Assembly (NCBI GenBank): GCA_042571645.1
Contig: JBHPFW010000006.1
Span: forward strand, 4,131 to 68,130
Source: Nanobdellota archaeon
Lineage (GTDB): Archaea > Nanobdellota > Nanobdellia > Woesearchaeales > JBHPFW01
Direction: 5' to 3'
DNA: 64,000 nucleotides
Shown here: positions 2,268 through 32,568 of the stretch, one piece after another
Numbering within the stretch: the stretch's first letter is position 1
Layout: each line of letters opens with the position of its first letter
Notes under the pieces: generated by a model
The model's input: only the letters and a program-made list of their open reading frames with translations
The model's database searches: none
Told to the model about the DNA's origin: nothing
Translations under genes and position numbers: made by a program

Positions 2268-3563
2268 ATGGCTAAAATAAGCCCAGTAACTTCAAAATAC
2301 ATTATTCATGCAACAATAGAAATTGAAGGCGTAGTTGATAAGCCTGATGTGATAGGCGCAATCTTCGGTCAAACAGAAGGTTTGCTCGGAGCTGATCTTG
2401 AATTAAGAGAGCTTCAGAGATCAGGAAGAATAGGAAGAATAGAAGTGAATGTTGATACTAGTTCTGGAAAAACAAAAGGCGAGATAGTGATACCTTCAAG
2501 CATGGATAAAGCAGAAACTGCTATTATCGGAGCAGCAATGGAGATAATCCAAAGAATTGGACCATGTAATGCAAAGATCAAGGTTGGAAATATAGAAGAT
2601 GTTAGAATTTCAAAGAGAAAGTTTGTTGTAGAAAGAGCTAAAGAACTACTTAAGAATATGATGGACGGAGTTATGCCAGATTCTCAAGAGATTGCAGATG
2701 AAGTTGCATACTCAGTAAGAGTAATGGAAATTCAGGAATACGGCAAAGACAGATGTCCAGCTGGTCCAGGTATAGACGAGAACGAAGAAGCAATTGTTGT
2801 AGAAGGTCGAGCAGATGTTATAACCATGCTGAAGCACGGCTTCAAAAACGTTATCGCAATTAATGGATCTAATGTTCCGCAAACAATAATTGATTTGAGC
2901 AAACAGAAAAGCATGATAGTTTTTGTTGATGGTGACCGAGGCGGAGATCTTAATGTTAAAGAACTATTGCAGGTTGCAGAGATTGACTTTGTAACAAAAG
3001 CTCCAGATGGAAAAGAAGTTGAGGAGCTAACTAAGAAAGAAATCCACAAAGCACTAAGAGCAAAAATAGCAGCTGAGCAGGTAAAATTGGATTTTGAAAC
3101 TAAATCAGGTAGTGATAATGAAAGCAGAAAAAGACCTTCTCAATACCAAGAAAGAAGACCTCCATTTCAGCAGAGAGACACTAGAGGCAGAGCACCACCA
3201 CCAGCTGGAAGAAGAGGACCTCCTTCAGCAGCAAGAGCTCCAGCACCAAGCAGAGCTCCATCTAAAGTAAGTCCTGAAAGTAAATCCAAATTCAAGTCAA
3301 TGCTTGAGGATCTTATAGGAACTAAAGGGGCGTTTCTTCTTGATGAAAAATTAAACTTGCTTGGAAAAGTTCCTGGAAGTGAGCTTACTTCTACTGTAAA
3401 AAGTTTAAGCACAGGCATACATGCAATAATTTTCGACGGTACAGTTGAAAAAGAACTCGTTGAAGTTGCAGAAAAAGCAAATGTAAAGATTGTAGTTGGT
3501 ATGGATTCAAAAGTAGATCCAAAATCAGCAAGAATTAATATTTTTACTGCCGAAACTTTATAG
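2268..3563 (+). CDS. dnaG: Archaeal DnaG primase-like protein (TOPRIM), with an Arg/Pro/Ala-rich disordered insert
   Basis: The N-terminus KYIIHATIEIEGVVDKPDVIGAIFGQTEGLLG...LQRSGRIGRIEV is typical of archaeal DnaG. The TOPRIM region is AIVVEGRADV...VDGDRGGD. An AGGAGGT Shine-Dalgarno-like motif lies about 8 nt upstream of the ATG. The insert RGRAPPPAGRRGPPSAARAPAPSRAPS maps to about 3120-3290. Confidence 0.93.
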   Translation: MAKISPVTSKYIIHATIEIEGVVDKPDVIGAIFGQTEGLLGADLELRELQRSGRIGRIEVNVDTSSGKTKGEIVIPSSMDKAETAIIGAAMEIIQRIGPCNAKIKVGNIEDVRISKRKFVVERAKELLKNMMDGVMPDSQEIADEVAYSVRVMEIQEYGKDRCPAGPGIDENEEAIVVEGRADVITMLKHGFKNVIAINGSNVPQTIIDLSKQKSMIVFVDGDRGGDLNVKELLQVAEIDFVTKAPDGKEVEELTKKEIHKALRAKIAAEQVKLDFETKSGSDNESRKRPSQYQERRPPFQQRDTRGRAPPPAGRRGPPSAARAPAPSRAPSKVSPESKSKFKSMLEDLIGTKGAFLLDEKLNLLGKVPGSELTSTVKSLSTGIHAIIFDGTVEKELVEVAEKANVKIVVGMDSKVDPKSARINIFTAETL

Positions 3564-3593: not shown

Positions 3594-5864
3594 TTATAAT
3601 TTTTTTATTTTATCCTTTTCTTTTTCTTTTTTTCTATCTTCTTTTTCTTTATCTCTTTTTTCTTTCTCCGCTTCTATAGTCTTTATATATCTGCATTTAG
3701 GATATTTACTGCAGCCTATGAATTTACCATATAAACTTTGTCTAAGGACTAATTCACTGCCGCACTTAGGGCAAGGATCTTTAAGATCTTCAGTAACTTC
3801 TTTTACTTCTTCTTTATCAGTGATTTTTTTGCTAGGACAATCAGGATTAATGCATACTTCTTGTGGTGAAGACCTAGGTCTTTTTATTGTGATGATTGGT
3901 GCTTTGCAGTCTGGGCATTCTTTTCTTGCAGACTTTACTACTCCAGCTTTTGGAAGGCTATAAGTTGTTTTACATTCAGGATATTTATCGCACGCTCCAA
4001 ACCTACCAAATTTGCCTCTGCGTAAATGTATTTCACCATCTTCACAGTTAGGGCATTTACCCAAATAACTTGCTTCATCTCTAGCTTCTTTAGTAGCGTC
4101 CATTAATTCCTTTCCTATATGCTTTTCATTTTTCTTGAAATCAGATAATATTTTTGTAAGAATAGTTTTTGCTGATTCTAGAACTTCTTCTGGTTTTTTC
4201 TTTTTTTCTCTTATTTTTTCCATTTCTTCTTCAAATTGTTTTGTTAATTCTTCATCAAGAATTCTAGGTGAGTATTTTTCTAATATCTCGCAAGTTCTTA
4301 TGCCTATTTCTGTTGCCTGTATGGATTTATCTAGAACATATCCCCTATTATATAATGCTTCAACAATTGAAGCTCTTGTTGCTTTAGTTCCAAGATTTCG
4401 TTTTTCTAGTTCTTTTATTATTGAAGCAGGTGTGTATCTTTTAGGAGGCTTAGTTTCTTTTTCTTGATGGTCTATTTTTTCAATTGGAACAATATCCTCT
4501 TTAACAACTGCAGGTAATTCTTCTTCTTCAAGCTTTACATGCCTTCCATAGAATTCAAACCATCCTTTTTCTACTGTTCTTGTGCCTTTTGCAATGAAAA
4601 TTTCTGTGTTGACATCAATATTTATCTTCACAGTTTCTCTGGTTGCAGGATCTCCAAATGTTGCCATAAATCTTCTTACAATAATATCATAAAGTTTTGT
4701 TTCTCTTTCGGGAATTGTGCTTGTTAATCCTGTAGGGTATATTGCTGGGTGGGCAGGATCTTTCTTCTTTCCATTATTTGGCAGGAGTTTGTCTTTTGGT
4801 TTAGTCAGGAGTTTTTCTGCTAGTTCTTTGTATGCTGTTTGTTTTTTGAGCTTGTCTAATATTGCAGCATAGCCTATTGTTTTCGGCAATTCTTGTGAAG
4901 ATGTTCTCGGATAAGAAATCATTCCCTTTATGTAAAGACTCTGAGCAAGTTCTAATGTTTGTCTTGGATCTATACCCATACTTCTGTATGCTTCTGTTTG
5001 GAGTGTTGTTAAATCAAATGGGTGGGGTGGAGCCTGATTGAATCTTCTTGCAGATACATCTGCAACTTTTCCTTCTTTAGCTCCATTAACTTTATTCATT
5101 ACTTCTTCTGATTCTTTTTTATCCCAGAATTTATCTTTTTCGTGCAACGCAGTTATATGTTTTTCTTTGGCTTTTCCAGTCAGTTCTATTTGCCAGTATG
5201 GTTCTGGTTTAAATGCGTCTATTTCTTTTTCTTTGTCTACAATTATTTTTAGTGCAGGACCTTGAACTCTTCCTGAACTAAGAAGTTTAAATCCGCCTGT
5301 AGTTTTTACAGCTGCTGTTAGTGCTCTAGAAAGATTTATGCCATAATACCAGTCAAGCTCGTGTCTTGTTACACCTGCATTTGCCTGGCCCCAGTCTAAA
5401 CTTGAAGAAGCGTGTTCATATGAATTAACAATCTCATCTTTTGTTAATGTTGAAAATTTCATTCTTTTAGCATCTTTTTGCTTGCAGGCATATTTTATTA
5501 CATTAAGTCCAATTACTTCTCCTTCTATATCATAATCTGTTGCTACAGTAAAGCTATCAGCATCTTTTGCAAGTTTTTTGATAGTAGAAAGATATTTTGA
5601 AGTAAATGCTGATCCTTTGCTAACTTTTGAAGAAGCTTCCCATTTAACATCAAAAACAGGATAAACCCATTTTCCTTTTTCTTTTTCAGCAACAGTATAT
5701 AGATGACCTACAGCTGAGGCAACAATTATATCCTTCTTATTATGAGTGATATCATAGTAAGGAACTCCCTTTTCATTTTTCTTTATTGCTTTGCCATCTG
5801 CTAAAGCATCAGCTATCTTTTTTGCTGCTGCAGGCTTTTCTGTTATTATTAATTCATATTTCAT
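3594..5864 (-). CDS. topA: Type IA DNA topoisomerase (TopA/Topo III-like) with C-terminal zinc ribbons and a Lys/Glu-rich tail
   Basis: 756 aa. The TOPRIM start is MKYELIITEKPAAAKKIA. The family IA core contains SYPRTSSQ with the catalytic Tyr context. There are three to four C4 zinc-ribbon motifs (CPNC...C..YPEC, CPDC, CPKCG...C.KYPKC). The tail is KEKRDKEKEDRKKEKEKDKIKKL. Confidence 0.93.
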   Translation of the reverse strand: MKYELIITEKPAAAKKIADALADGKAIKKNEKGVPYYDITHNKKDIIVASAVGHLYTVAEKEKGKWVYPVFDVKWEASSKVSKGSAFTSKYLSTIKKLAKDADSFTVATDYDIEGEVIGLNVIKYACKQKDAKRMKFSTLTKDEIVNSYEHASSSLDWGQANAGVTRHELDWYYGINLSRALTAAVKTTGGFKLLSSGRVQGPALKIIVDKEKEIDAFKPEPYWQIELTGKAKEKHITALHEKDKFWDKKESEEVMNKVNGAKEGKVADVSARRFNQAPPHPFDLTTLQTEAYRSMGIDPRQTLELAQSLYIKGMISYPRTSSQELPKTIGYAAILDKLKKQTAYKELAEKLLTKPKDKLLPNNGKKKDPAHPAIYPTGLTSTIPERETKLYDIIVRRFMATFGDPATRETVKINIDVNTEIFIAKGTRTVEKGWFEFYGRHVKLEEEELPAVVKEDIVPIEKIDHQEKETKPPKRYTPASIIKELEKRNLGTKATRASIVEALYNRGYVLDKSIQATEIGIRTCEILEKYSPRILDEELTKQFEEEMEKIREKKKKPEEVLESAKTILTKILSDFKKNEKHIGKELMDATKEARDEASYLGKCPNCEDGEIHLRRGKFGRFGACDKYPECKTTYSLPKAGVVKSARKECPDCKAPIITIKRPRSSPQEVCINPDCPSKKITDKEEVKEVTEDLKDPCPKCGSELVLRQSLYGKFIGCSKYPKCRYIKTIEAEKEKRDKEKEDRKKEKEKDKIKKL

Positions 5865-6114
5865 TTTGAAAATCTTTATTGAAAATCTTTACTTAAAACT
5901 TTAAGAATTTTGCATTTTATATAAAAAGCTTTGGGCAGAGAAAAAACACACCAAAAATAGCTCTACTTAGTGTTTTGCAGGGTCTTAGGTCTTAATAATG
6001 ATAAAAAGCTATTGTAAACAATATTATGAATGAGCTGCTTCTTTGTTTGTATTTGTTTGTACTACTTGTTATTCGCAAACAAAATATTTAAACACCGCGT
6101 TCCAAGACAATTTT

Positions 6115-7957: not shown

Positions 7958-8333
7958 AAATTATATGTTAAGTTCCTTTCCATTTTACAATTAATTCTTG
8001 GAATTATAGGTGAGGATTTTTTAGGCGGCATACTAATATCAATACAAAATAAGTATTTAATAACACAAATTAAGTATAATTGCCCTGAACATCATAACAT
8101 AAATTAATGAAATTTATATTCAAATTAAGTAAAAAACATATAAAATAATAAAAGATAGCAAAATTTATAAACATAGTAAGTATTTTCTATGAAATCAATA
8201 TGCTGATTATTGCATAATCTTCTGAAGTATATCATCTATTTTAGTAATAATTATATTCATTTTAAGTATTTTCTTATAAAAACAGCTATAAAATAGTAAT
8301 ATTTATAAATAAATTAAGTAGAAATCATCTTTA

Positions 8334-8885
8334 ATGAGTAATCTAGGCAAAAGTAGTCTTAAAAGTAGTGATTTTGTTAAAGAGGGAAGTAAAACAAAAG
8401 ACATTGAAGGTGTTTTTGATCTTCTTCTGAATCTTATGAAAGAAAAGGGCATGACTATGCAAGAACTTATTGCAAAGTATGAGGGTTCTCCAAAAGAAAT
8501 TTTTGTGCCATTATCAATATTCTCAACAAAACTAAGTCCTTCAGAATCTTTAAGTGTATATCTAAAAGAAGAACAAGATCTATCATACAGCGAAATTGGA
8601 GAACTGCTGAACAGAAATGAAAGAAGCATATGGACAAACTTCCACAATGCCAGAAAAAAAGCAAAAGAGAGATTACCTTTAGACAGCGAAATTTCTGCAC
8701 CATTAAGTATATTCAAAACAAGACAGCTAAGTATCTTTGAGAGCTTAATACTTTATCTGCGTGATACTTTGAAATTAAAGAACAGCAAAATAGCTCATGC
8801 TCTAAACAAACACACAAGTGTAACATATACTGTCTATAACAGAGCAAAACAAAAACTCGATTCAAAAAATAAAAAAATAAAATGA
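8334..8885 (+). CDS. Tandem-duplicated HTH protein (sigma-70 region 4 / LuxR-like), putative regulator at the head of the plus-strand surface operon
   Basis: There are two internal repeats. The first is VPLSIFSTKLSPSESLSVYLKEEQDLSYSEIGELLNRNERSIWTNFHNARKKAKE (nt 8505-8672). The second is APLSIFKTRQLSIFESLILYLRDTLKLKNSKIAHALNKHTSVTYTVYNRAKQKL (nt 8697-8858). The stop codon overlaps the next ATG (ATGA at 8882-8885). A TATA-like ATATTTATAAATAAA lies about 20 nt upstream. Confidence 0.6.
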   Translation: MSNLGKSSLKSSDFVKEGSKTKDIEGVFDLLLNLMKEKGMTMQELIAKYEGSPKEIFVPLSIFSTKLSPSESLSVYLKEEQDLSYSEIGELLNRNERSIWTNFHNARKKAKERLPLDSEISAPLSIFKTRQLSIFESLILYLRDTLKLKNSKIAHALNKHTSVTYTVYNRAKQKLDSKNKKIK

Positions 8886-11800
8886 AAGACAAGATAATGG
8901 TATTGATAGTGTTTGCAATCTTAATAGTTTTTGGTATGCTATTATCTAATTTAGGAAAACTTGCAATGACAGGTTATGTTGTATTTGAGCCAGATACTAT
9001 CGATGAACATACCGAAACTAATGTTGTTAATAATTATTCTGAAGAAATAATTGAAGATTTAGTAACTGAAGAGCTAGTAACTGATTTAGTAATTGAGGAC
9101 CCAGAAGAGCTAAATGAATCAATACCAAATAATCCCATACTAATTAATGAAACAATAAATCAAAGCAATAATCAGAGTGAAGAAACAGATGATGAAGAAA
9201 TAGGTGAAGAGATAGATGAAGTAATAGATGAACTTGATAATTATCTAGATGATTCAATAGATGAGCAAATCTTAAATGAATCATTAGATAAATCAGATTC
9301 TGATACAAACGAATCAGATTCTGGTACAAATGTGCCAGATTCAAACCAATCAACAATACCAAATCAATCAACAATAAATGAATCAAATCAGGATATTCCT
9401 GAGGATACAGTATATGTAAATTACACAGAAATTGATGACAGTAAAATTGATGTTATTATAACACTTAAACCAGAAAAAACAGAAGTTGAAAAAGAAGTAA
9501 TAGAAACTTTTGAATTTGAAGCAACAAAAGAAATAGCTCCAGAAACCCTTGAGCCAAAAAAAGTGAGAAAATGGTTAATATTATCTGAAGAATTACCACC
9601 TACAGAAGCAACATTTGAGCAAAAAGAAAAAATCCAGAAAGAAGTGCAGGAAAAAGTCCTTAAAGAGACACAAGAAAATATCAAAGAAGCTCAATCTGAC
9701 TTAGCAAACTCTCTGGACTCAGATATAAAAGAAAATTCAATAGAAATAGAACACAATTATACTTCTATCGGCTTGGTGCATGCTAAAGTTACACCTGAAG
9801 AACTTGAAAAATTAAATAATAATCCTGAGATAGAAAATATAGAAAAAAGCAAGACTTACAGTATTGTGCTTGATGCCAGCATACCTTATATTAATGCAGA
9901 TAGCGTATGGGGTACAAAAGTTAATGGAATTAATATTACCGGCGCAGGAGAAACAATCTGCATAATTGATACAGGAATTGATTACAGACATGATTCTTTG
10001 GGCAATTGCACACAAGCAGAATTTTTAGCTGGAGACTGCACAAAAGTTTTGAGTGGTTATGATTATGTAAATAATGATCCGAACCCAATGGATGATCATA
10101 GTCACGGCACTCATTGTGCTGGCATTGCTTCTTCCACACACACAACCTATAGGGGAGTTGCATTTGATGCTAATCTTGTTGCACTAAAGGCTTGTAATAG
10201 CGGCGGTGGCTGCGGTGACTCAGACATACTTGCAGGAATAGATTGGTGCATAACTAATGCATCAATCTTCAATATATCAGTTATCAGCATGAGTTTGGGT
10301 GATGATTCTTTCCATAATAGTTATTGCAGTGGAAGTATATTCAATACACCTGTAAGAACTGCAGTGGAAAATGGCATAACAGTTGCAATAGCAGCAGGAA
10401 ATGTTCCTGCAGGAGCAACAGGTGTTGCAGAACCTGCATGTGTAGAGAATGCCACAGTAGTTGGTGGCCTGAGAGATAGTGATAATGCAGTATTCTACAA
10501 GAGAGGTGCTTTAATGGATTTATTTGCACCAGGCATAGGCATTTATGCTCCTGTTTTGAATGAGGGTTTTGGAACAAAGTCAGGAACTTCTATGGCAACA
10601 CCTCATGTTGCAGGAGCTATTGCTGTAATGCAGCAATACAACAAACTTATTAATAATGCATCATTGGATCCTTATAATATTGAAGACTTGTTTGAGGAAA
10701 CTGGTGTAATGGTTTATGATTCTGGTTTAGGTTATTCAAAGCCAAGATTAGACTTGCAAGCAGCTATCGAAAGTGTTTTGGTAATAAACGAATCAGATAA
10801 TTCAACAGAAAACACTGATGCCAAGATTAAGTTCTCAAACACCACAGCATTTACAAATATAACAAAATGTGTTAATATCAAGAGAAATGCTGTTTCTGTA
10901 AATGCTAAAAAGTGCCCCGAATTAAATAAATCAGCCACTTTAACATTCAAATCCCAGATTTACAAAACAAATCCAGTAATTTTAATGGATGGCCAGATAT
11001 GCCCTGCTGAGATTTGCAGCTTTGTTTCCTATTCACAAAATAATGCCATATTTACAGTAGGTCACTTCACCAATTATTCTACAACTACAAATTCAAGATT
11101 AGAAATATGGGATGAGAATGATGTTTTGGGAGGAAATCAAAATAAAACAACTGGAGAAATAATAAGATTTTATGCAAACTACACAAATAAAACAAGCAAT
11201 AACCCAATTAATAATAATTCTGAGAATGGCAATTGTAATATAACAATTAACAGTACCCAATATGTAATGAGCTTTAATTCATCAGGACAACAATATTGGT
11301 CATATAGTAATATATTCAGTTCTTCTGCTAATTATTCTTGGAATGTGAGTTGTAATGCAACTGGTTATGAGCCATTAAATGTTTCTGATAATATCGAAGT
11401 AATAACCAACACACCTCCAAATCAGACTAAGCCAATATTAACCTCAACATTTGGCACAAACAGATCAAATGAAAATCTTACTGTGTATAATCAATCCACA
11501 AATGATGTTAATAATCAGGTTGTTAGCAATATAATTAATTGGTATGTTGATGGAGTAATTAATAATCAGCTTAAGAATCTGACAAGAATTGATTCAACAA
11601 ACATTTCAAGAGGGGAAGGCTGGCAAGCGTGTGTCACACCAAATGATGGTGTAGAGAATGGTACTACAAATTGTAGCAACAATATAACTGTTTTGAATTC
11701 TCCAGCAACCCAATCAACACCAATTCTTAACTCAAGCAATGGAACTAATACTCCAAATGAGAATCTGAGTGTTTATAATAAATCAACTTATGATGCTGAT

Positions 11801-12652
11801 GGAGATTCTGTAGATAATATAATTGATTGGTATGTAAATAATGCAGTAAGGCAGGAGTTCAAGAACTTCACCACTATTAACTCTAGTAATACTTCTTCAG
11901 GCCAGGATTGGAAAGCCTGCATAATTCCTTATGATGGCTATGAAAATGGCACAAGATTATGCAGCAACACAATTGCAATTCCATCAGAAAATAACAATGG
12001 TGGAAGTTCTGGCGGTGGAGGCGGTGGTGGCAGCAAAGAAACCTGTTTTGATGGAAAGAGAAATCAAGGTGAAACAGGAATAGACTGTGGTGGGATTTGT
12101 GCAGCATGCCCAAGTTGTTTTGACGGCAAACAAAATTGTCATGATAATAAATGCGAAGAAGGTGTTGATTGTGGGGGGCCGTGCGCTGCTAATTGTGCTC
12201 CTGCTCCAAGATGTGATGATGGCATAATGAATGGTTATGAAACAGGAATAGATTGCGGTGGGTATTGTGGGGCTTGTGAAGCTGAGATAAAAACAGAGCA
12301 AAGCATTGCAAAACCTCCTATTGTAAAAGAGACAAAAAAAGAACTTCCTCTTGGATTAACAGCCCAATCCGCAGAAGAGAAAGAAAAGAAGGGGTTATTG
12401 GAAGAATTAGAGGACATCAATATTGTTGGAAGAGCATTCCTTGCCAAGCAAGCTAATATGATAATGATGATTGTTATCATAGCTATGATACTGATACTGT
12501 CTTTGTTGTTTAGACCTATTTCCTATAGAAAACCTAGAGCAGCACCACTAGAGCAAAAAGAATTGCCCAAATCAAACAAATCAAAACTACAAAATATTAC
12601 TGAAACAGATAAAACAATCAAAGAATTAGACACTAGACTAAAGAAATTATAA
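8882..12652 (+). CDS. Membrane-anchored subtilisin-like (S8) serine protease fused to adhesin-type modules
   Basis: 1256 aa. From N to C: TM/signal, acidic low-complexity region, I9-like propeptide, S8 domain, Ig-like modules, two uninterrupted ~95-aa W-x-AC-x-TP-x-DG modules, poly-Gly, three Cys-rich repeats and a C-terminal TM (MIMMIVIIAMILILSLLF). Confidence 0.9.
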   Translation: MKDKIMVLIVFAILIVFGMLLSNLGKLAMTGYVVFEPDTIDEHTETNVVNNYSEEIIEDLVTEELVTDLVIEDPEELNESIPNNPILINETINQSNNQSEETDDEEIGEEIDEVIDELDNYLDDSIDEQILNESLDKSDSDTNESDSGTNVPDSNQSTIPNQSTINESNQDIPEDTVYVNYTEIDDSKIDVIITLKPEKTEVEKEVIETFEFEATKEIAPETLEPKKVRKWLILSEELPPTEATFEQKEKIQKEVQEKVLKETQENIKEAQSDLANSLDSDIKENSIEIEHNYTSIGLVHAKVTPEELEKLNNNPEIENIEKSKTYSIVLDASIPYINADSVWGTKVNGINITGAGETICIIDTGIDYRHDSLGNCTQAEFLAGDCTKVLSGYDYVNNDPNPMDDHSHGTHCAGIASSTHTTYRGVAFDANLVALKACNSGGGCGDSDILAGIDWCITNASIFNISVISMSLGDDSFHNSYCSGSIFNTPVRTAVENGITVAIAAGNVPAGATGVAEPACVENATVVGGLRDSDNAVFYKRGALMDLFAPGIGIYAPVLNEGFGTKSGTSMATPHVAGAIAVMQQYNKLINNASLDPYNIEDLFEETGVMVYDSGLGYSKPRLDLQAAIESVLVINESDNSTENTDAKIKFSNTTAFTNITKCVNIKRNAVSVNAKKCPELNKSATLTFKSQIYKTNPVILMDGQICPAEICSFVSYSQNNAIFTVGHFTNYSTTTNSRLEIWDENDVLGGNQNKTTGEIIRFYANYTNKTSNNPINNNSENGNCNITINSTQYVMSFNSSGQQYWSYSNIFSSSANYSWNVSCNATGYEPLNVSDNIEVITNTPPNQTKPILTSTFGTNRSNENLTVYNQSTNDVNNQVVSNIINWYVDGVINNQLKNLTRIDSTNISRGEGWQACVTPNDGVENGTTNCSNNITVLNSPATQSTPILNSSNGTNTPNENLSVYNKSTYDADGDSVDNIIDWYVNNAVRQEFKNFTTINSSNTSSGQDWKACIIPYDGYENGTRLCSNTIAIPSENNNGGSSGGGGGGGSKETCFDGKRNQGETGIDCGGICAACPSCFDGKQNCHDNKCEEGVDCGGPCAANCAPAPRCDDGIMNGYETGIDCGGYCGACEAEIKTEQSIAKPPIVKETKKELPLGLTAQSAEEKEKKGLLEELEDINIVGRAFLAKQANMIMMIVIIAMILILSLLFRPISYRKPRAAPLEQKELPKSNKSKLQNITETDKTIKELDTRLKKL
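9857..10780 (+). other. Peptidase S8 catalytic domain with an intact Asp/His/Ser triad
   Basis: Asp lies in ICIIDTGID (codon at 9968-9970), His in HSHGTHCAG (10103-10105) and Ser in SGTSMATPHVAG (10589-10591). All three codons are in frame with 8882. Confidence 0.85.
11413..11975 (+). repeat. Two uninterrupted copies of the ~95-aa module that is split by LamG elsewhere
   Basis: Copy 1 is PPNQTKPILTSTFGTNRSNENLTVYNQSTND..NIINWYVDGV..GEGWQACVTPNDGVENGTTNCSNNITV. Copy 2 is PATQSTPILNSSNGTNTPNENLSVYNKSTYD..NIIDWYVNN..GQDWKACIIPYDGYENGTRLCSNTIAI. Confidence 0.7.
12045..12277 (+). repeat. Cys-rich stalk: 3 x C-x-DG-x2-N-x2-E-x-G-x-DCGG-x-C-x2-C
   Basis: The sequence is CFDGKRNQGETGIDCGGICAAC / CFDGKQNCHDNKCEEGVDCGGPCAANC / CDDGIMNGYETGIDCGGYCGAC. 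It is preceded by GGSSGGGGGGGS and followed by a TM anchor. Confidence 0.7.
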
Positions 12653-12676
12653 TGAGGAAATAACAATAATAAATAG

Positions 12677-27600: not shown

Positions 27601-30600
27601 AGGTTATGATTTTGATGGAACTGAAGATTATATTGAAATACCAAATGATGCAAGCATAGATTTTTCAAACACAGATCCCTTCTCAATATCTGCATGGGTA
27701 AAAACCACTCAATATAGCGGAATGTTTGTAGCTAAAATAGATGGTTCGCCTTTTACAGGTTATGAATTTTTAGTATATGCTGACCAGCTGTCTGTTTGGT
27801 TGATAAATAATTATGGCGGTGGTAATTATTTATTTGTTCAGGAAACAGGGACAGGAGCAGTAAATGATGGAAATTGGCATCATGTTACAATGACTTATAA
27901 TGGTTCAAGCTCTGCTTCAGGTGTTAAGTTATATGTTGATGGAAGCAAAATAACAACGACTACTGAGGTGGATAGTTTATCTGCTTCAATCTCAAGTACA
28001 ACTCCCGTGAGAATAGGAGAAAGAGGAGATAATGAGCTTGATTATAATGGATTAATAGACGAAGTACTGATCTACAACCATACATTAACACCACAACAAA
28101 TTAAAGCAGTATACAACAACCGCACAGACTTAATTGTTTCTAATGAGACTTATCTGAATGATATCTGGAAAGCCTGCATTACTCCAACTGATGGTTTTGT
28201 TGATGGTGCTACCAATTGCAGTGACTCTGTGACAGTAGTTGATAATTTCCCGCCAACTCATTCACAGCCAATCCTAAACTCAACATTAGGAACAAACAAA
28301 ACAGATGAAGATTTAACTGTTTATAATAGATCTACATCTGATTTAGACAATGACCCTGTTACTAATATTATTGATTGGTATGTAAATAGCATAAACCAGC
28401 CAAGTCTCAAGAACCAATGGACAATAAATTCAGCAACTACCAGCAAAGGCCAGAGTTGGTATGCGTGCATAACACCAAATGATGGAACAATTAATGGATC
28501 AATAAATTGCAGTAACACATTAACAATAGAAAATACTGGCCCTGGATATACATTCACCAATATAACACCAGAAACAGCATACACTAATGACACATTGTCT
28601 GTTAATGTAACACCAACAGATATTGATAGTGATACTTTGACAGTTTGGATTAAATGGTTTGTCAATGGTATACTCAAATTCTGGGAGAAAATCACAGGAA
28701 TAATCTCTGGCTCTATAGTACAGCTAAATCTCTCAAGCAGCAACTTCACCAAAGGCGATAATGTAACTGCAGAAGTTACAATAGGTGATGCTGATGTAAA
28801 TCTTACTCCAACAAATACTTCAACAATAAGTATATTGAATTCTCTGCCTACGCATCAATTGCCATTCCTTAATTCAACAACACTATTGAACAGAACAGAT
28901 GAAAACTTGACTGTTTACAACAGATCAACTACAGATCCAGATGGAGACGAAATAAAAAACATCATTAATTGGAAACTCAACTCTAACAGTTTTGCAGAAT
29001 TGAATCTTCCATTTGAAGGAGGCAGTAATTCCACATATACAAAAGATTATGCACAAGACACAACAATATTAGTAAATAGTGCAACTTGGAATGCAGCAGG
29101 AGGTTATGATAATAATGGCGGTTATGAATTTGATGGTGCAGATGATTACATTGCTTTAGATATGAACTATAGTTCTGCTGGTGAAATCTCTGAACTTACG
29201 GTTTGTGCTTGGTATAAAACAGAGTATGCAGGCCTTGAGTGGAATGCCAATGGTGCTTTAGTTGATTTTGATAATACTGAATATTATGGCTTATTTGTAA
29301 ATGGTGTTAATGGAAATATTGTCTTCAGAACAACAAGCTCTACAGGTTATTCTAATTCCACAGTTGGTGCAACAAATACAAATGACGGCAGCTGGCATTT
29401 TGCCTGTGGAGTATTTGACAGTTCAGAAGAATATGATAAGAAAGTTTATTATGATGGTGCGCTTGGCAGCCAGCAAAATAATTATCCAACTGGTGTAAAT
29501 CTCGGAACCGGTACAACAAGATTTGGTTTTATTGGAGACACTTCAGAAGCAGTTTCATTTGACGGCATTAAAGGCAGCAAATATTTCAACGGCTCAATCG
29601 ATGAAGTAATGATTTATCACAAAGCTTTGTCTGCTGAGCAAATAAAAACTTTATACAACAGCAGAACTGATTTAATAGTATCTCAGGAAACTGCTGCTTA
29701 TGATGTATGGCAATCATGCATAACACCAAATGATGGCACAGCAGACAGCACAACATTATGCAGTAATGAAATAACTGTATGGGATATTCCTCCTGAAATC
29801 CATAATGTAACTATGAACTCAACTGACCATTTGAACAGAACAAATGCAACATTAAATGGATATTTTGATTATTATGAGCCATCAGGAGCATTGCAGCAGG
29901 AAAATGAAACTAAATGGTATAAGAATAATGCAGAGGTTTCTGCTTTAGCTAATAAAACAATCATCAGTCCAAGCAACACAACAAAAGGAGAAATATGGAA
30001 GTTCGGTGCAAGAGTTTATGATGGAACATCATGGAGTACATGGGATAATTCCTCGGAGTTGACAATTAATAATGCACTCCCGACTCAATCTTCACCATTG
30101 CTAAGTTCAAGCTCTGGAACAAACACTCCAACTGAGAACTTGACAGTTTATAATCAAAGCACTATTGATATTGATGGAGACACAGTAACAAATTATATTG
30201 ATTGGTATCTTGATGGAGTTTATAATTCAACCTTTGATGATAACAATACAATAAACTCTAACTATACAATACTTGGCCAAATTTGGAAAGCCTGCATAAC
30301 CCCGTATGATGGAACAATAAACGGAACAAAATTATGCAGTGCAAATTTAACAATAATTCCTCCTGCTCCTGCTCGTGTTGGTGGAGCTGCCGGTGGTGGT
30401 GGAGCTCCACCTATACCAGAATCTTGTTATGATGGTGTACAAAATAATGGAGAATCTGGAGTAGATTGTGGAGGAAAATGTCCAAGATGCCCATCATGTT
30501 CTGATGGAAAGATGAATTGTCATGACGACAAATGTGAAGAAGGCACAGACTGTGGAGGTCCGTGTGCTGTTGGTTGTGGACCAGCACCAAGATGTAATGA

Positions 30601-31567
30601 TGGAATAAAGAATGGTTTTGAAACAGGCATAGACTGTGGCGGGTATTGTAAATCTTGTATTCCAGTAATTAAGCCAGAGGAAATTAAGCCAGCAGATAAG
30701 GTTATTCCTCCTAAAGAACTTCCAGAGGAAAAAATCATAATAGAAGAAGTTTTCAGAAAAGTTAAAAAAGGAGTAACAGAAACAGTCCTTTTCCCCGGAA
30801 GAGTTTCAAGAAACTTGAAAACTTCGATAGAAAAATTCCTAAGTCGAAAATTCAATATAGGACTTCTTTCAATACTCACTTTAATCAGCATCCTGTTAAT
30901 CTTTGAAATGACAAGGGCAATCCGCATAGATGCTATAGAACAACTAATGGCCTCTAAGATAATCCAGAGATATGAAAAAGCTAAATATTATCTTGGAAAG
31001 ATCCTTGTGTTGGAGGAAGAAAGACATAATGCCAGAATTGCCTCGAGACTTAAGAGTTTCAATGAATCTTTGACTAAGTTTGAAGAAAGAAGAAAACTAA
31101 GAGATATAATAAGAGAAAAATTATCAGGCGGAAACAGTCAGAGAACAAAAGGATTATTAATGCTGATGATTCTGATAATTGCTGTTTTGATAATATCTAA
31201 TATTGGCGCTTTTTCAATAATAGGATATTCAACTACAGAAATTAATAGAGTTAATAGTGATCTTGCTGTTAATTCTGCTATTGATGCTGATAATGATGAA
31301 CAGGTTATTGCCGAGGCTGTAGAGGATGAAAATAATGATTCCCTAGGAATTGCATTAGCAATAGGAATGATTTTAATATCGTCATTTTTAGCATTACTAA
31401 TAGTGTTTAGACCGTCAGTATCTGCCTCAGCAAAGGTGATTGAAGATTCCAATAAAGATATCAATAAAGATTTAAATAACGATTCCAATAAAGATCAAAA
31501 GAAAGATCTGGAGATGAAAACCCCCCAGAGAATACATAAAGAAGACGAGGAAAAAAAGGATATTTAA
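12677..31567 (+). CDS. Giant (6296-aa) surface protein: 11 nested LamG modules, beta-helix region, Ig-like modules, Cys-rich stalk and a three-TM tail
   Basis: One uninterrupted 18.9-kb ORF in an AT-rich sequence. It has an N-terminal signal/TM and repeated LamG signatures (W..VAATY.GS...LYVDG....; IDEV.IYN..LS..QIKALYNNRTDLIV). PbH1-like repeats run from about 18870 to 21190. The stalk at 30425-30658 is homologous to that of the preceding gene. Confidence 0.9.
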   Translation: MKAMEAYKIRGLLVLAISVLMGIVLANLGNLSITGYSTVELNNTIYVYSDTIMDEDFYNSDYSYYHVIIEKDNVKLDCNDLPLIGNETGIGIYSNKNNITLENCFVVNYEYGIVLTGNDSNLINTRAENNLFVDIMYMEVEEFEMENAVADNASNETLTESEANLTQDPLAEPNITDPVSESEPTQENISTSGIQEDPQPPQDPITILSGNAPTHSQPILNSTNGLFHSSENLTVYNQSTNDGEGDNVTNSILWLRNKRSFPATHVDINYDNVIFRTPFENYTVSTDTYKDYSVSDSTITVSNTVWNATGGHDGYGAYKFTGTTGYLKTTADIGEGEASLTVLVWVKPSPSPAHIGDFVTKRNVYYTLQNISNNVWVYLSGLSSAWTRSSSTLSTTNWNHVAWTKSGSTLRLYINGQEDSVSPVTLTSSNPLASGILHPLTIGNVVLNTGAIDADRGFDGHIDDVMILDVALSADQIKAMYDRTSNIIRSDETEVSDTWQACITPNDGTSDGATNCSDTKTILLSNPPTHSQPILSSTSGNNLYSDNLTVYNQSTIDINGDSVSNIINWYRNDTSIAVLNMPFDSADSAGSGKTKDYSGSGNNGTLAGHTVWTSDGYLGGAYYFDGTNDYIDFGNDPDLSFERTDPFSISAWVKIDDVSSVRLIFSKLAGPTAYPGYQFFVHTNGQIYFDLFRDSSTTKYIRVYETSNEGVADGGWHQVTATYDGSSTAAGVKIYLDGDAVSTTVGQDTLDGSMLNSVSAYIGTRSDGSYDYKGYVDEVNVFNRELSPEQINALYNNRTDLIVSQETEVSDIWKACITPNDGFVDGVTNCSTSLTIVSNIPPTHNQPILNSTLGTNLTTENLTVYNQSTSDLEGDGVNNSIRWLRNSRSYPATPESVSYTNMVLNMPFENYTGLSDNSADHSLYGNNGTVYGNPVWNSTGGHDGYAAYDLDGTGDYIEIADDASLESTQISLGAWVKREGTMGTGVWHRRIISKNYQTTFVDPFDSYALLVDNSVNYYIGFNIGWGTGGGKYTTYWTSTPLPDGEWTHLFMTVNQTQVKLYMNGNLLTTQTAGGNPIYNNGPLRIGAMDPTHASERFFNGKIDDVRIYDLSLTADQIKEIYQNKSGVIQFNETSIDDVWQACITPYDAYGAGSENCSNNLTVLAPIPNYAPVVSDIVLNATDHPSNTTNANLTVYYNLSDLNDDNITKVINWYRNDSSITVLNMPFDSNNSAGTGKTKDYSGYENNGTETGGVAWTSQGYISGAYDFAGDNDYIQIADDDILSFGDTLTDQPLTISAWVNMDAATLFPIVAKDASTSNVEYVFGTSSADYLVLTLYDLNSANRIQAYTATGVMTPYEGIWTQLVAVYDGFGNESGINLYIDGVLQTGLTRGEVGTYEAMHNTNAALFIGKRETPNQRYANSRIDDVRVFNRELSTEQIKALYNNRTNLIVSQETNVNDIWKACITPNDGQVDGSTNCSNNLTVLVGSNQAPTQTQPILNSSDATNKSASNLTVYTSIFDPNGDNTTAIINWYKDSSSISVLNMPFEGGSTSGSSTGPTNGTTKDYSGYGNNGTAIANSSNNGPQWSSSSGYIGGAYTFDGVDDYIEVNHSSSLNIENEITLSAWVKSNEEGYVVVKDPSAEQQTAYYINKSDCDYIPTWDDGTCVGQTLTEPQFLTIGQNTLTCNYTDTLLNNVEVTSVTLYGAHNVVCTNGVQYYWNGTLLGTSVDSSTACNFCLPSQDLNAPYYHNFTLTNPNYSIGGINTFSFTNLAGGNGYAGFIGGHHTPALGLSGYEMFKVTVNYTVSGKYTPFSLSTINGGEFLIGNDNYRAISSGSINDGNWHHIAATYNGSEMRLYVDGKLNATNTSFSGSLPTNTDPVWIGRNYDPENSTGYFNGTIDEVQIYPAALSAQQIKALYNNRTDLIVSQETSGGEKWQACVTPNDGQVDGSENCSNSLTVREVELTIWDDNDLAGGNQNKTRGELISFYANYTENGGIGPINNSIGWCNLTINTTPDGPYEMSYNSTSGLWYHNRSFNNATNYQWNVTCNSTGYEQLTKTDTITVYPDCVTPEDEYQFESNSLVNFCSGSYSLGATGSYYQFAYSFYLDNTHSNITFICDDTILNGPGAGSFNFAFLIMGSQNISIIGCNFSNFVIATGLLNNFDTINLSNNYFSNVYSSIFIAKGRNFHILNNTLNGGAGITLRDEFGGPGNNSGGRIIGNTMMSPSSSMGGLAAGVVFDLDQEQTLTETSDIYIANNTIINSGGFGISLMQADSRSTINNITISNNNISNPSSYGIYIENASNVIVDNNLISGATYESIYSVAENSVKIRNNQIYNNNNRHAIYMGSSVEDKYGVLNGGRDFVISGNTINNSGGTGTRNSYFASLSPIRFNGYDFNGNGAGMIVFGLGSERRRNVFADNTPFENILYGVRGDNFTLSLIYDNVLQKNITFFYEDGFNEDIENCADLRNEIGSVNVYYCRENTLISNGATSDYTFDSSIFNSSFNVTPGYTNPPYLRYESWSYNASAIEIDSNTNVTISDNVLDRNDYGITISNSTTVNIRNITGTTVTSASYYGSNSPRIYDGQKYQDVPLQDGVGNGTILFVDTTEYKVYGANDKVEMPLVDGTFNFSVCLINALDTYFITGYFYPQLNKTECEVFVNNSCGGCNPVAEYVEFNVFTAQGAGNNYVWAGNSSTTAVSGTYYTDPPYINVVIANNVKNYISIEALNGGTIQNINLDNPDNENIDVKSSSDLIFKDITINSGGKGIIIDPSSNITIRDSTINSTSGEGILIFNNTNAIIYNNTITYNSRNGINISLNGSATITENTICYNNLFGIYSLDSVLNPDYPSLMSQNNFTCAGDNLQDAKLKKEWYVQARTIDSYSQNLSSASVNLYEPSTNSTPKYTETTDVNGLTPLYDLIATQYIINNTDSQLNSTPHRIYTTKSGFQNELTWTVTESNTTRGDNEIILLLGNAALRIWDDKDPRAGSQNKGSTDNIYFYANYTNSTSKIPIDDNTDGGWCNITISDNPADSFAMSYNSSNGLWNHNKTFGAVGSYSWNVTCNATNYESLYAIEAIYVNALPTHSRPLLIASDYPANSTYANLTVYNQSTQDNDVGYVANIINWFRNGNSLNVLNMPFEGGSTSGNSSENGTARDYSNYTNNGIVVNAAWNRTAGYNNFGAYEFDGAGDYIELPHSSSLDLTDEITISVWVKSNSEGYVVVKDPYETGQAIYYIENESCSGWDDEGCNSYNPYTYEGFLGNSSGSTLKCNYTDTLPTDVTIDSIEVQGAMAANCAPNNPIKWWWGNTLIGQFDDTDGRCGCNPDPPAIMNFSLTNPSYDIGGENFVYLNNSGNFASILGGSYAGYSTGQILKVTVNYTGGKIVPFSLSTRNGGEFFLRNNSFKVISTNSINDGDWHHLAATYNGSEMRLYVDGKLNATSTSYSGNLPTNSDPVWIGRHFDPRNLTGFFNGTLDEVQIYPIALSAEQIKAVYNDGTYVIVSQETYGGDTWKACITINDGYTDGATNCSNEVTIENIAPNFTFTNITPSPAYANDTLFVNITPLDEDSSTITVWIKWFVNGILKFWERLTGIFSGQTVQANLSSTYFNKSDNVTAEVTVGDNVDNATAQNTSALTIGNLAPSISAIGINSSNNLNTSADTITGYFVYSDADSDLQQSTETKWYIDDSYDSSFDNIFDIGPGNFTNTQQIIFSARVSDGTAWSNWANSSTLAIRNSAPFQDNPLLISIFGTNLTTENLSVQNISTQDYDGDNVENIINWYLNGTSLTTLNLPFASNHSAGTNKTRDYSGYGFNGTVYGANWNPGRSGYYEFDGVDDYIETNVSALNSSIFSIELWAKFNDYEDRRPLFAKATASDDVLAIGTDIFDGSTNIGLGINNGGWDYVESQTNPVLGQWYHIVGVQNSTSKLIYIDGELENTESNVILPAGNTIFIGKRRFGGAIPINGSIAAVRIYNNSLTSAQIKALYNNRTDMIVSEQTSDGDIWQACMTPNDGSIDGTEKCSNNILVLPQIGEQPVDTGFGGGNTTNFDTVPNLSDVDTVVLHNDSYMKLNWTSSGLNVSGANFSETVIFGEGWVNINLSTISTTLNSSATIELYNLPFEETPIVYIDGVLCTQDCDIIGYSGTTLIFNVSHFTNYSTGPNSQLMIWDDTDPEGGSQSKIINDSIFFIANYTNVTSGKYIDNVSNNGWCNISFSYDPIGPFEMIFNYTGNNTWAYNRSFNDSNTYNWNVSCNATNYELFELSDQVYITPLENRPPTHSKPIISSTNGFNRTTDNITVYNQSTNDPDRNNLTNIVDWRKDGGTFAILNAPFDTNSSNVVRDYSNNESNLSASAGVQWTPNGYIGGGYYFDDIGNNDYLNYSLNKYDFGFSGSDQMTVMAWVYADRLGGETHYIVENDENWIFYVNADRKVVLTLISSGGSYWNTYRCDSPLVQTGRWYHITGVVIDSTKTGTQNAMKIYFDGQECITPFKNPNTGWQNLGSKGLAIGARSFIGLYGQNSWNGTIDEFKIFPTALTEEQIKAIAQNKTDTIVSQETSVGDKWQACVTPNDGEYDGSTKCTNNLSVVLSHAPTHSEPVLNSTSGNGLSRDNLTVYNVSTIDIEPDNITNIINWKKDGSSITVLNMPFDSPDSAGSGKTKDYSDNENNGTNYGSIVWSPDGYYGGGYIFDGTDDYIYVPNTNSLTSFPIGLTVSVWVKQTGSDTGGIVLSRWGVSGVESGYGLHSNDNWYMGDGTNWGFISAGRLRDSNWHHYVLVWDTSTMTSYRDATYVDSTNAAGAVFNNPGNSRLVIGDDNRIANPGANIFSGQIDEVRIYNKTLSIEQINALYNNRTDLIVSQETSVGDTWLACVTPNDGLVDGAENCSNTVNIILSNPPTHSKPIINSTSGYNRIEDNLTVINQSTADIDGDAVRNIVNWYRNDSSIMVLNMPFDSNNSAGSGKTKDYSGYGNNGTINGATWTSSGYTGGGYDFDGTEDYIEIPNDASIDFSNTDPFSISAWVKTTQYSGMFVAKIDGSPFTGYEFLVYADQLSVWLINNYGGGNYLFVQETGTGAVNDGNWHHVTMTYNGSSSASGVKLYVDGSKITTTTEVDSLSASISSTTPVRIGERGDNELDYNGLIDEVLIYNHTLTPQQIKAVYNNRTDLIVSNETYLNDIWKACITPTDGFVDGATNCSDSVTVVDNFPPTHSQPILNSTLGTNKTDEDLTVYNRSTSDLDNDPVTNIIDWYVNSINQPSLKNQWTINSATTSKGQSWYACITPNDGTINGSINCSNTLTIENTGPGYTFTNITPETAYTNDTLSVNVTPTDIDSDTLTVWIKWFVNGILKFWEKITGIISGSIVQLNLSSSNFTKGDNVTAEVTIGDADVNLTPTNTSTISILNSLPTHQLPFLNSTTLLNRTDENLTVYNRSTTDPDGDEIKNIINWKLNSNSFAELNLPFEGGSNSTYTKDYAQDTTILVNSATWNAAGGYDNNGGYEFDGADDYIALDMNYSSAGEISELTVCAWYKTEYAGLEWNANGALVDFDNTEYYGLFVNGVNGNIVFRTTSSTGYSNSTVGATNTNDGSWHFACGVFDSSEEYDKKVYYDGALGSQQNNYPTGVNLGTGTTRFGFIGDTSEAVSFDGIKGSKYFNGSIDEVMIYHKALSAEQIKTLYNSRTDLIVSQETAAYDVWQSCITPNDGTADSTTLCSNEITVWDIPPEIHNVTMNSTDHLNRTNATLNGYFDYYEPSGALQQENETKWYKNNAEVSALANKTIISPSNTTKGEIWKFGARVYDGTSWSTWDNSSELTINNALPTQSSPLLSSSSGTNTPTENLTVYNQSTIDIDGDTVTNYIDWYLDGVYNSTFDDNNTINSNYTILGQIWKACITPYDGTINGTKLCSANLTIIPPAPARVGGAAGGGGAPPIPESCYDGVQNNGESGVDCGGKCPRCPSCSDGKMNCHDDKCEEGTDCGGPCAVGCGPAPRCNDGIKNGFETGIDCGGYCKSCIPVIKPEEIKPADKVIPPKELPEEKIIIEEVFRKVKKGVTETVLFPGRVSRNLKTSIEKFLSRKFNIGLLSILTLISILLIFEMTRAIRIDAIEQLMASKIIQRYEKAKYYLGKILVLEEERHNARIASRLKSFNESLTKFEERRKLRDIIREKLSGGNSQRTKGLLMLMILIIAVLIISNIGAFSIIGYSTTEINRVNSDLAVNSAIDADNDEQVIAEAVEDENNDSLGIALAIGMILISSFLALLIVFRPSVSASAKVIEDSNKDINKDLNNDSNKDQKKDLEMKTPQRIHKEDEEKKDI
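13306..18547 (+). repeat. Nested modules 1-5 (N-half of small domain + LamG + C-half)
   Basis: Each unit reads P-T-H-[SN]-Q-P-I-L-N-S..ENLTVYNQST.D..GD.V.N.I.W.RN, then a LamG of about 190-370 aa, then SQET...D.W.ACITPNDG..DG..NCS..LT. The LamG C-ends fall at about 14200, 15140, 16115, 17080 and 18500. Confidence 0.75.
18870..21190 (+). other. Right-handed parallel beta-helix (PbH1/NosD-like) region
   Basis: Periodic ~22-25-aa repeats rich in N/I/G, for example NISIIGCNFSNF, INLSNNYFSNV, HILNNTLNGG, ITISNNNISNPSSYGIYIENASNVIVDNNLISG, NITIRDSTINSTSGEGILIFNNTNAIIYNNTITYNSRNGINI. Confidence 0.6.
21904..30358 (+). repeat. Modules 6-13: six LamG-split copies, two uninterrupted copies and related small domains
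   Basis: The LamG C-ends fall at about 23220, 24690, 26360, 27265, 28195 and 29735. The uninterrupted copies are at about 28255-28530 and 30080-30358. Confidence 0.7.
30425..30658 (+). repeat. Cys-rich stalk, second copy (3 repeats)
   Basis: The sequence is CYDGVQNNGESGVDCGGKCPRC / CSDGKMNCHDDKCEEGTDCGGPCAVGC / CNDGIKNGFETGIDCGGYCKSC. It is preceded by VGGAAGGGGAPP. It aligns with 12045-12277 at both the protein and DNA level. Confidence 0.7.
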
Positions 31568-31581
31568 ATGAGGTGTAGGAT

Positions 31582-32568
31582 ATGTTTGATGTTATTACAA
31601 TTGGCAGTGCAACAGTTGATGTGTTTGCAAAAACCCATTCAGAACTTGTTAAGATAAAAACACCAAAAACAGAGGAAACTTTGATATGTTATCCTTCTGG
31701 AGCAAAGATTCTTATTAAGGATTTGCAGTTCATGACTGGCGGTGGAGGTACTAATACTGCAGTTGCTTTTTCTCGGCTAGGCCTAAAAACAGGTTATCTC
31801 GGTCATCTCGGAAAAGGCGAGAATGGCGACAAGATAATTTCCATGTTTAAAAAAGAGAAAATAAAATTTCTAGGCACAAGAGGAAATGAAATGACTAATT
31901 ATTCTATGGTGCTTGACAGCATAGAACATGACAGAACAATCCTTGCATATAAAGAAGCATCACAAAAGCTTAGTTATGAAAAAATAAACAAATCAACTCT
32001 TAAAACAAAATGGTTCTATATCTCTTCAACACTTGGCCAGACATTCAAGACAACTGAAAAGCTTGTTAGTTTTGCAGTTAAGAATGGGATAAAAATTGCT
32101 TTTAACCCAAGCAATTATCAGGCTGAGAAAGGAGCAAAATACCTGAAAAAAATACTGGATAACACTAATCTTTTGGTTTTAAACAAAGAAGAAGCTGAGC
32201 TTTTGCTTGGAAGAAGATATGGCACAGATTTAAATGAACTTCTTGAAGGATCGCATGAATTAGGCCCAAAAATTGTTGTGATAACTGACGGCAAAGAAGG
32301 TGCTTATTGTTCTGATGGAAAGAAAAAACTCAAAGTTATTCCAAGAAAAATCAATATTTTAGAGACTACTGGTGCAGGAGATGCCTTTGCATCAAGTTTT
32401 TTGTCTGGCTTGATTAAGAAGAAGGACATAAAATTTGCATTGCAGATGGCTGTTGTTAATGCACAATCTGTTATTCAGAATTATGGAGCAAAGAACATTT
32501 TGCTTAACTGGAAACAGGCAATAAAAGAAATGAAATTAAGGCCCAGAAAAATTATTGGGTTTAAGTAA
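31582..32568 (+). CDS. PfkB-family carbohydrate/nucleoside kinase (ribokinase-like)
   Basis: The N-terminus has the PfkB GG motif (FMTGGGGTNTAVAF). The C-terminal signature is ILETTGAGDAFASSFLSG. A GAGGTG Shine-Dalgarno-like motif lies 6 nt upstream, and the gene starts only 14 nt after the giant ORF stop. Confidence 0.85.
   Translation: MFDVITIGSATVDVFAKTHSELVKIKTPKTEETLICYPSGAKILIKDLQFMTGGGGTNTAVAFSRLGLKTGYLGHLGKGENGDKIISMFKKEKIKFLGTRGNEMTNYSMVLDSIEHDRTILAYKEASQKLSYEKINKSTLKTKWFYISSTLGQTFKTTEKLVSFAVKNGIKIAFNPSNYQAEKGAKYLKKILDNTNLLVLNKEEAELLLGRRYGTDLNELLEGSHELGPKIVVITDGKEGAYCSDGKKKLKVIPRKINILETTGAGDAFASSFLSGLIKKKDIKFALQMAVVNAQSVIQNYGAKNILLNWKQAIKEMKLRPRKIIGFK

Follow-up and report, generated by a model that had tools for sequence, protein, structure and literature searches.

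A predicted membrane-anchored pro-subtilase with an adhesin-type pedestal next to a giant LamG surface protein in a DPANN archaeon

Introduction

The ways in which DPANN archaea attach to their hosts and feed on them are poorly understood, and giant surface proteins are prime candidates for a part in these processes. Large subtilases such as pyrolysin and lactocepin PrtP carry a long C-terminal spacer that shows the catalytic head outside the cell envelope for peptide nutrition. In Staphylothermus marinus, the subtilisin-family protease STABLE is bound to the stalk of tetrabrachion, and both precursor processing and peptide supply have been proposed as its tasks (PMC5744192). The SPEARE proteins of Nanohaloarchaeota unite a serine protease, LamG/adhesion domains, a C-terminal transmembrane segment and a cytoplasmic type III restriction-enzyme domain in one polypeptide (PMC6642349). 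Here, we analyse a 64,000-nucleotide stretch of a Nanobdellota archaeon (GenBank assembly GCA_042571645.1, contig JBHPFW010000006.1, positions 4,131 to 68,130, i.e. C6:4131-68130; hereafter the window), in which the gene of a predicted membrane-anchored pro-subtilase, P0001, lies directly upstream of the gene of a giant LamG/beta-helix surface protein, P0002. The locus is an example of a genome's single detected subtilase being mounted on an adhesin pedestal and probably co-expressed with one adhesin.

Results

Catalytic head of the protease

The open reading frame (ORF) of P0001 (8882..12652; all window features given here are on the + strand) encodes 1256 aa without stops. Pfam assigned residues 354-605 to Peptidase_S8 (PF00082; E 1.2e-38, 133.6 bits against a cut-off of 21.8) and residues 264-327 to Inhibitor_I9 (PF05922; E 1.4e-4, 22.9 bits and thus barely above the cut-off of 21.2). 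The subtilisin (S8) catalytic domain, residues ~341-640 (9902..10801), was also recovered by phmmer against the PDB (E 5e-28), by AlphaFold and by Foldseek. A first-pass annotation of the same DNA, made from the sequence alone, had reported an intact S8 triad at 9968, 10103 and 10589 together with an I9-like propeptide, and coordinates, alignment and Pfam confirm this: the triad consists of Asp363 (GAT codon, 9968..9970, motif IIDTG), His408 (CAC codon, 10103..10105, motif HGTH) and Ser570 (TCT codon, 10589..10591, GTSMATPH), with Asn507 (10400..10402, AAGN) as the oxyanion-hole residue. In phmmer alignments, the three residues pair with the catalytic residues of solved subtilases and Asn507 pairs with their AAGN. 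An alignment with 41 homologues (42 family members) shows no variation at these four positions or at four cysteines of the catalytic domain, and the SLG substrate-binding strand is intact. A dead catalytic site, which we looked for in the alignment as counter-evidence to the functional link drawn by the annotation, was not found.

An AlphaFold2 model of residues 261-840 reached a mean pLDDT (predicted local distance difference test) of 89.1 and a pTM (predicted template-modelling score) of 0.83. Its top PDB matches are ProN-Tk-SP (3afg) and the unautoprocessed pro-subtilisin E (3whi), with a Foldseek E of 3e-26; the target-normalised template-modelling scores are 0.58 for 3afg and, for subtilisins matched at a probability of 1.00, 0.80 (3whi) and 0.85-0.89 (mature subtilisins). 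The I9-type propeptide spans residues ~187-335 (9440..9886) with an internal insertion and the Pfam core at 264-327, and the model matches 3whi and 3afg. Two all-beta domains (~634-735 and ~738-839) come after the catalytic domain in the model. By the order and motifs of the triad, the oxyanion Asn, the profile and fold matches and the I9 propeptide, P0001 is a member of peptidase family S8, and judged by its residues the enzyme looks catalytically competent.

Topology and surface features

P0001 is predicted to be a type-I membrane protein. It begins with a signal/anchor h-region ending in NLGKLAMTGY (residues 1-32, 8882..8977), which was recognised by its similarity to the N-terminus of the giant and by a motif census; the N-terminal signal regions of the two proteins are clearly related (local score z=12.3 against shuffles). 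Behind it follows an acidic, sequon-rich leash of low complexity (residues 36-185, 8987..9436; 26% D+E, 2% K+R), which is missing in most homologues, where I9 comes directly after the signal. At the other end, a charged, Pro-containing spacer (residues 1135-1192, 12284..12457) leads from the stalk to the membrane, where a single C-terminal transmembrane helix (1193-1210, 12458..12517) ends in LLFRP and is followed by basic residues, in line with the positive-inside rule, and by a short cytoplasmic tail of ~44 aa with 19% K+R (12518..12649). The ectodomain (341-1035) carries 5.76 N-x-S/T sequons per 100 aa, compared with 2.37+-0.48 in composition-matched shuffles and a genome median of 0.42. 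Their density rises to 8-10 per 100 aa in the Ig-like and bracket modules described below and is 0 in the stalk, which has 14 Cys.

The first-pass annotation had also assigned the same transmembrane-FRP anchor to the protease and the giant. This held only in part: in both proteins a hydrophobic segment is followed by [LV]FRP, but the tails resemble each other weakly (z=3.3 against shuffles, a value reached by 9 of 1000), and the giant has three hydrophobic segments, with VFRP behind the third. In the C-terminal tail of the giant (window 31112-31321), the N-terminal signal-like motif recurs internally (h-region-NIGAFSIIGY), and an acidic stretch and a transmembrane segment with VFRP come after it. 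This internal segment resembles the N-terminus of the protease (z=8.4 against shuffles), and the tail looks like an empty 'signal-leash-anchor' frame fused on to the giant.

Modules shared with the giant and across the genome

The catalytic domain is followed by a post-catalytic beta-sandwich (residues 641-735, 10802..11086), all-beta and modelled with high pLDDT, which has paralogues in 5 giants of the genome. Next come an immunoglobulin (Ig)-like module (residues 736-832, 11087..11377; RLEIWDEND...NVSCNATGYEPL), two uninterrupted 'bracket' modules (residues 840-938 and 936-1033, 11399..11980), and a poly-Gly linker (1044-1050) with a stalk of three Cys repeats of the form C-x-DG-x2-N-x2-E-x-G-x-DCGG-x-C (1051-1134; linker and stalk at 12011..12283). 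We mapped these modules by regular expressions and hidden Markov models (HMMs) and compared the protease with the window proteins by BLASTP, which gave 28 high-scoring segment pairs to the giant. The longest pairs align residues 841-1193 with giant residues 5701-6061 (45% identity, E 1.5e-75, a 363-aa alignment; giant block at 29777..30859) and residues 651-910 with 4077-4332 (41%). The module contents claimed by the first-pass annotation were all reproduced, i.e. an Ig-like module in the protease with three more in the giant (1959-2054, 2970-3067 and 4154-4252; 48-54% identity), two bracket modules in the protease, and the same three-repeat Cys stalk in both proteins (giant 5913-5996; 72.5% identity). 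The giant's brackets are mostly split around a LamG domain carried in a loop, whereas the two brackets of the protease are LamG-less.

At the DNA level, no paralogue matches the protease gene over a longer stretch than the neighbouring giant gene, with 579 nt at 68.6% covering bracket 2, linker and stalk. The giant is the sole paralogue that is colinear with the protease over bracket, linker and stalk, and one of two that share its N-terminal signal motif. The 3' block of the protease gene shares ancestry with the 3' block of the giant gene, and its 5' signal region likewise resembles that of the giant. We considered a recent gene conversion between the two genes and rejected it, the 579-nt match at 68.6% being the best and near-identical DNA tracts being absent; because such tracts are absent, the duplication is old.

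Are these modules private to the two genes? A census of the genome counted 6 proteins with the Ig-like module, ~12 with the bracket and 5 with the Cys stalk, the stalk bearers being the protease, the giant, C2_77141 (3641 aa), C7_59623 (1415 aa) and C9_56 (2854 aa). For the Ig-like module of the protease, a truncated giant on contig C37 provides the nearest paralogue (59%; the neighbour reaches 48-54%), and for its stalk the nearest ones are on contigs C7 and C2 (76-77%, compared with 72.5% in the neighbour). Over beta-sandwich, Ig-like module and two brackets, the C37 giant runs colinear with the protease, too. The two-domain cassette of beta-sandwich and Ig-like module (window 10802-11377) occurs in 5 giants here and in 34 of 61 same-order genomes, mostly in ORFs of 3000-5000 aa, and it stands directly behind the S8 domain in several homologues. 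The Cys repeat was found in 4074 cluster representatives at E<=1e-3 and in 1289 at E<=1e-10, some with at least 20 copies; the matches include bacterial proteins with Por_Secre_tail sorting domains of the type IX secretion system (T9SS). No Pfam model, Heavy_Cys_CGP included, matched the Cys stalk even at E<=1. What the two proteins share is a toolkit in use throughout the genome and the order, with modules interchangeable between giants and protease. The sharing reported in the first-pass annotation is real, but the modules are not private to the two genes, and the Ig-like module and stalk are nearer to paralogues on other contigs. Because pedestal modules occur in many proteins, their sharing is no evidence of pairing.

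Homologues and their gene neighbourhoods

Residues 261-760 were searched against a collection of 5.8 billion proteins, and 1624 of the 8000 candidates scored were significant. The best homologues, 38-49% identical over these residues and 700-2100 aa long, come mostly from DPANN archaea, and several are named S8 peptidases of Woesearchaeota/Nanoarchaeota; even the nearest database relatives are only ~42-49% identical. Among the 119 best homologues, 88 have a C-terminal transmembrane-like segment, 18 a DCGG Cys stalk near the C-terminus, 12 an Ig-like module right behind the S8 domain and 4 a bracket, while none gave a LamG match to an HMM trained on the LamG copies of the giant. Because of these module counts, the combination of S8 head, Ig-like module, Cys stalk and transmembrane segment can be called a recurrent DPANN design that is not peculiar to the present locus. 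P0001 has the layout of signal, long beta extension, C-terminal transmembrane segment and short tail that is common to most of the 119, and it is a typical representative of a large family of archaeal surface proteases that is still uncharacterised. In two relatives, S8 domains lie within giants: one of more than 5500 aa contains four S8 domains with FG-GAP, CARDB, PKD, PA and pectinesterase-like parts (L035:3-16586, + strand), and one of 3336 aa combines a polysaccharide deacetylase, a ThuA-like part and I9+S8 (L021:1269-11279, + strand). The gene of P0049 (L045:4057-9594), the homologue closest to P0001 in architecture, with bracket and Cys stalk, is directly preceded by that of a 264-aa Heavy_Cys_CGP (PF27854) protein.

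Is the adjacency of an S8 protease and a LamG giant conserved in relatives? Of 61 same-order genomes, 44 have S8 homologues and 54 have LamG domains, and we retrieved stretches of up to 20 kb surrounding 20 of the best S8 loci of these genomes. No LamG was found in the 20 loci with the narrow HMM made from the giant's own copies, and among the Pfam LamG matches listed (six-frame) none lies within 30 kb of these loci, the nearest being 35 kb away (G038:C10). Pfam applied to the six largest S8 neighbours gave no LamG; these are surface proteins of other kinds, with beta-helix, YadA-head-like, LRR-hemopexin or DUF11-repeat parts. ORFs of at least 1000 aa occur about once per 46 kb in the 20 loci, no more often than in the background of the own genome. 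Seven metagenomic contexts (those of the four best homologues and of three with bracket and/or stalk) showed housekeeping neighbours and no LamG giant. Conserved adjacency, which the first-pass annotation had itself named as a check of the functional link, was seen in 0 of 27 contexts; the test is a weak one, as it covers distant relatives at the order level, at most ~42-49% identical, and two bracket-bearing homologues stop at contig ends. Two bracket-bearing S8 homologues from different samples (L046:10001-15006 and L048:10001-16178) share the same upstream genes, L21e-Rpb4-DUF655, and an M50 site-2-protease (CBS) gene beside S8.

Gene run and genome context

The protease gene belongs to a same-strand run of four genes. 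It is preceded by a gene for a 183-aa tandem helix-turn-helix (HTH) protein that is sigma-70 region-4-like (8334..8885; Pfam Sigma70_r4_2, E 1.4e-8) and whose stop overlaps the protease start by 4 nt (ATGA). A spacer of 24 nt (12653..12676), the distance also given by the first-pass annotation, contains GAGGAA and separates the protease from the 6296-aa giant P0002 (12677..31567); 14 nt past the giant's stop begins a gene for a PfkB-family sugar kinase (31582..32568), with a GAGGTG Shine-Dalgarno-like site ahead of it. The spacers are free of T-runs, and the 24-kb run is bordered by long gaps of 544 nt upstream and 361 nt downstream. Judged by this spacing, the protease is probably co-transcribed with the upstream HTH gene, the giant adhesin gene and the PfkB kinase gene. 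Because the run is tightly packed and on one strand, co-expression and cell-surface co-localisation of protease and giant are plausible. At the end of the run of surface-protein genes there thus stands a gene for a cytoplasmic sugar kinase.

Two further giant genes of the genome, on contigs C29 and C37, each have a paralogue of the HTH gene immediately upstream (phmmer E 2e-24 and 6e-19; L050:17249-17794 and L051:6524-6982, both on the - strand). The giant behind the C37 paralogue is a LamG giant. That on C29 (L050:5548-17247, - strand) has 3899 aa, with a signal, an acidic Pro-rich leash and a C-terminal HerA/FtsK/ResIII-like P-loop domain (~3304-3464), and its layout resembles the SPEARE proteins of Nanohaloarchaeota. 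That HTH paralogues head other giants supports, in turn, a co-regulation of protease and giant. An HTH gene upstream of S8 homologues elsewhere was looked for in loci L021-L044, and no match was found. The HTH gene is lineage-specific and linked to giants rather than to S8, and its distribution suggests that an HTH regulator followed by surface-protein genes is a lineage-specific layout.

A common operator upstream of the three HTH genes was sought and found unconvincing, the shared elements being AT-rich k-mers and some GTAAGTA-type repeats only. The region upstream of the HTH gene in the window (8000-8333) has five repeats of TTAAGTA/GTAAGTA type. Contig C7 carries a further HTH paralogue, a single-repeat protein of 70 aa, with the palindrome TACTTACATTGTAAGTA twice upstream (G000 C7 ~5617-5700). 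These repeats and palindromes near HTH genes may be operators or may reflect chance in AT-rich DNA.

The assembly amounts to 1.49 Mb in 55 contigs and is ~82% complete. The genes around the locus encode a RIO1 kinase, a NurA-like protein, a Toprim primase-like protein, a topoisomerase and ribosomal protein S6e; because of these neighbours and because the best protein matches carry the names Woesearchaeota/Nanoarchaeota, we take the organism to be a DPANN archaeon. Three giant ORFs (6296, 3367 and 2400 aa) and several further surface genes lie in the window, and the genome holds 45 ORFs of at least 1000 aa.

Discussion

We consider it probable, if by no means certain, that P0001 is a general cell-surface pro-protease that is displayed on an adhesin-type pedestal and probably co-transcribed with the adhesin. 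The protein would be exported via its N-terminal signal/anchor, and its folding would be aided by the I9 propeptide, which would then be removed autocatalytically. It would stay tethered as a type-I membrane glycoprotein, with the catalytic head about five small domains above the membrane, carried by the beta-sandwich, the Ig-like module, the two brackets, the Gly linker, the disulfide-rich triple Cys stalk and the transmembrane helix. By analogy, the job of the enzyme would be broad proteolysis at the cell or host-contact surface, which could allow peptide scavenging for an auxotrophic DPANN cell and/or loosen the host envelope that is gripped by adhesins. On this analogy, broad proteolysis at the surface is the most likely function, ahead of a dedicated cleavage of the giant. 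Some points weigh against our reading. The number of S8 genes detected in the genome, one, is a lower bound at ~82% completeness. Furthermore, an A/T-rich, TATA-like stretch, AAATTATAA, lies at 12644-12652, ~25-33 nt 5' of the giant's ATG, and the giant may have an internal promoter there, although calls of archaeal promoters and terminators are unreliable in DNA of ~33% GC.

The same TATA-like stretch would suit an alternative in which protease and giant are neighbours by descent, brought together by local duplication and recombination in a surface-gene island, and are expressed and act independently. The window indeed contains three giants and several other surface genes, toolkit giants adjoin each other elsewhere too (56 nt apart on contig C2), and long ORFs are frequent in the genome, 45 of them reaching 1000 aa or more in 1.49 Mb. 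In addition, the block that both genes have in common is old (68.6% nt, 45% aa), and their adjacency is not conserved elsewhere. We nevertheless hold independence to be rather unlikely, though worth keeping in mind, as the 4-nt overlap, the T-run-free spacers of 24 and 14 nt, the common strand and an HTH gene of the type that heads giants favour a single transcription unit. A different alternative takes the neighbourhood as functional and makes the subtilase a dedicated maturase or sheddase, which would cleave the adjoining giant, or all stalk-bearing proteins, near the membrane and so mature or release them. It could draw on the adjoining, tightly packed genes, on the colinear bracket-linker-stalk block, which would position the catalytic head at the giant's base, and on an N-terminal sorting-like motif common to few proteins of the genome. 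There is also precedent in STABLE, which has been proposed to process the precursor of tetrabrachion (PMC5744192), and in the SPEARE chains that unite a protease with LamG adhesion domains (PMC6642349). Yet LamG-giant adjacency was met in none of the 27 homologue contexts, the pedestal modules occur in many proteins, one protease would face at least 12 toolkit giants on other contigs, and neither a recognisable cleavage motif nor a docking domain was identified in our analysis. Such a specialised role is improbable in our view, and a dedicated processing of the giant is unlikely.

An extension of this idea would be a regulated 'grip and cut' cassette, in which the HTH protein would switch on both the LamG giant and a pedestal-mounted protease; from its place at the adhesin's foot, the protease would shed or mature the adhesin or digest the envelope of the captured host, and the cassette would be a split-gene counterpart of SPEARE and of STABLE with tetrabrachion. 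We offer it as a speculation to which we give little credence. Equally speculative is the idea that the propeptide may stay membrane-tethered via an uncleaved N-terminal anchor and the 150-aa acidic leash and act as a local inhibitor. The S8 domain could also be imagined as a non-catalytic binding module, a pseudo-protease that adds one more adhesive head, but with the triad, the oxyanion Asn, the SLG strand and I9 all intact, and with the triad and oxyanion residues invariant across the family, this is scarcely credible. What remains of the link drawn by the first-pass annotation, which had proposed a protease co-localised with the giant and possibly processing it or its bound target, is the common membrane-proximal architecture and a co-localisation made plausible by the tight same-strand run. 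A specific functional pairing of the two proteins is unsupported: the modules are those of a toolkit, the closest Ig-like and stalk paralogues lie on other contigs, and the adjacency is not conserved.

Seen more broadly, a small set of surface modules (the cassette of beta-sandwich and Ig-like module, the bracket and the Cys stalk) is shuffled freely between enzymes and adhesins in these lineages. The value of the locus lies mainly in annotation and in a candidate for expression studies.

How does our general surface pro-protease compare with known systems? It is like other uncharacterised DPANN S8 peptidases in its I9+S8 head and beta-sandwich/Ig-like C-terminal extension, and unlike them in the 150-aa acidic leash ahead of I9, in the two LamG-less brackets, and in being encoded between an HTH gene and, directly downstream, a LamG giant. 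With Tk-SP of Thermococcus kodakarensis (3afg) and pro-subtilisin E (3whi), it has in common the propeptide, the subtilisin fold and a C-terminal beta domain, whereas these are soluble secreted proteins of 400-660 aa without stalk or transmembrane segment and only 20-27% identical to it. The spacers and the anchoring of pyrolysin and lactocepin PrtP differ as well, with LPXTG or S-layer association in place of a transmembrane helix. STABLE and tetrabrachion present the same picture of an archaeal subtilisin-family protease on the cell surface beside a very long surface protein; STABLE, however, binds a coiled-coil stalk non-covalently, while P0001 has its own transmembrane anchor, and the two are not known to be sequence relatives beyond the S8 fold. 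The SPEARE proteins are, like the pair described here, DPANN candidates for host interaction with protease, LamG/adhesion domains and transmembrane anchor. By Pfam, the protease has neither LamG nor a cytoplasmic enzyme domain and the giant neither protease nor ResIII, so that neither is itself a SPEARE protein: what SPEARE joins in one chain, the protease and the LamG adhesin, is carried here by separate genes.

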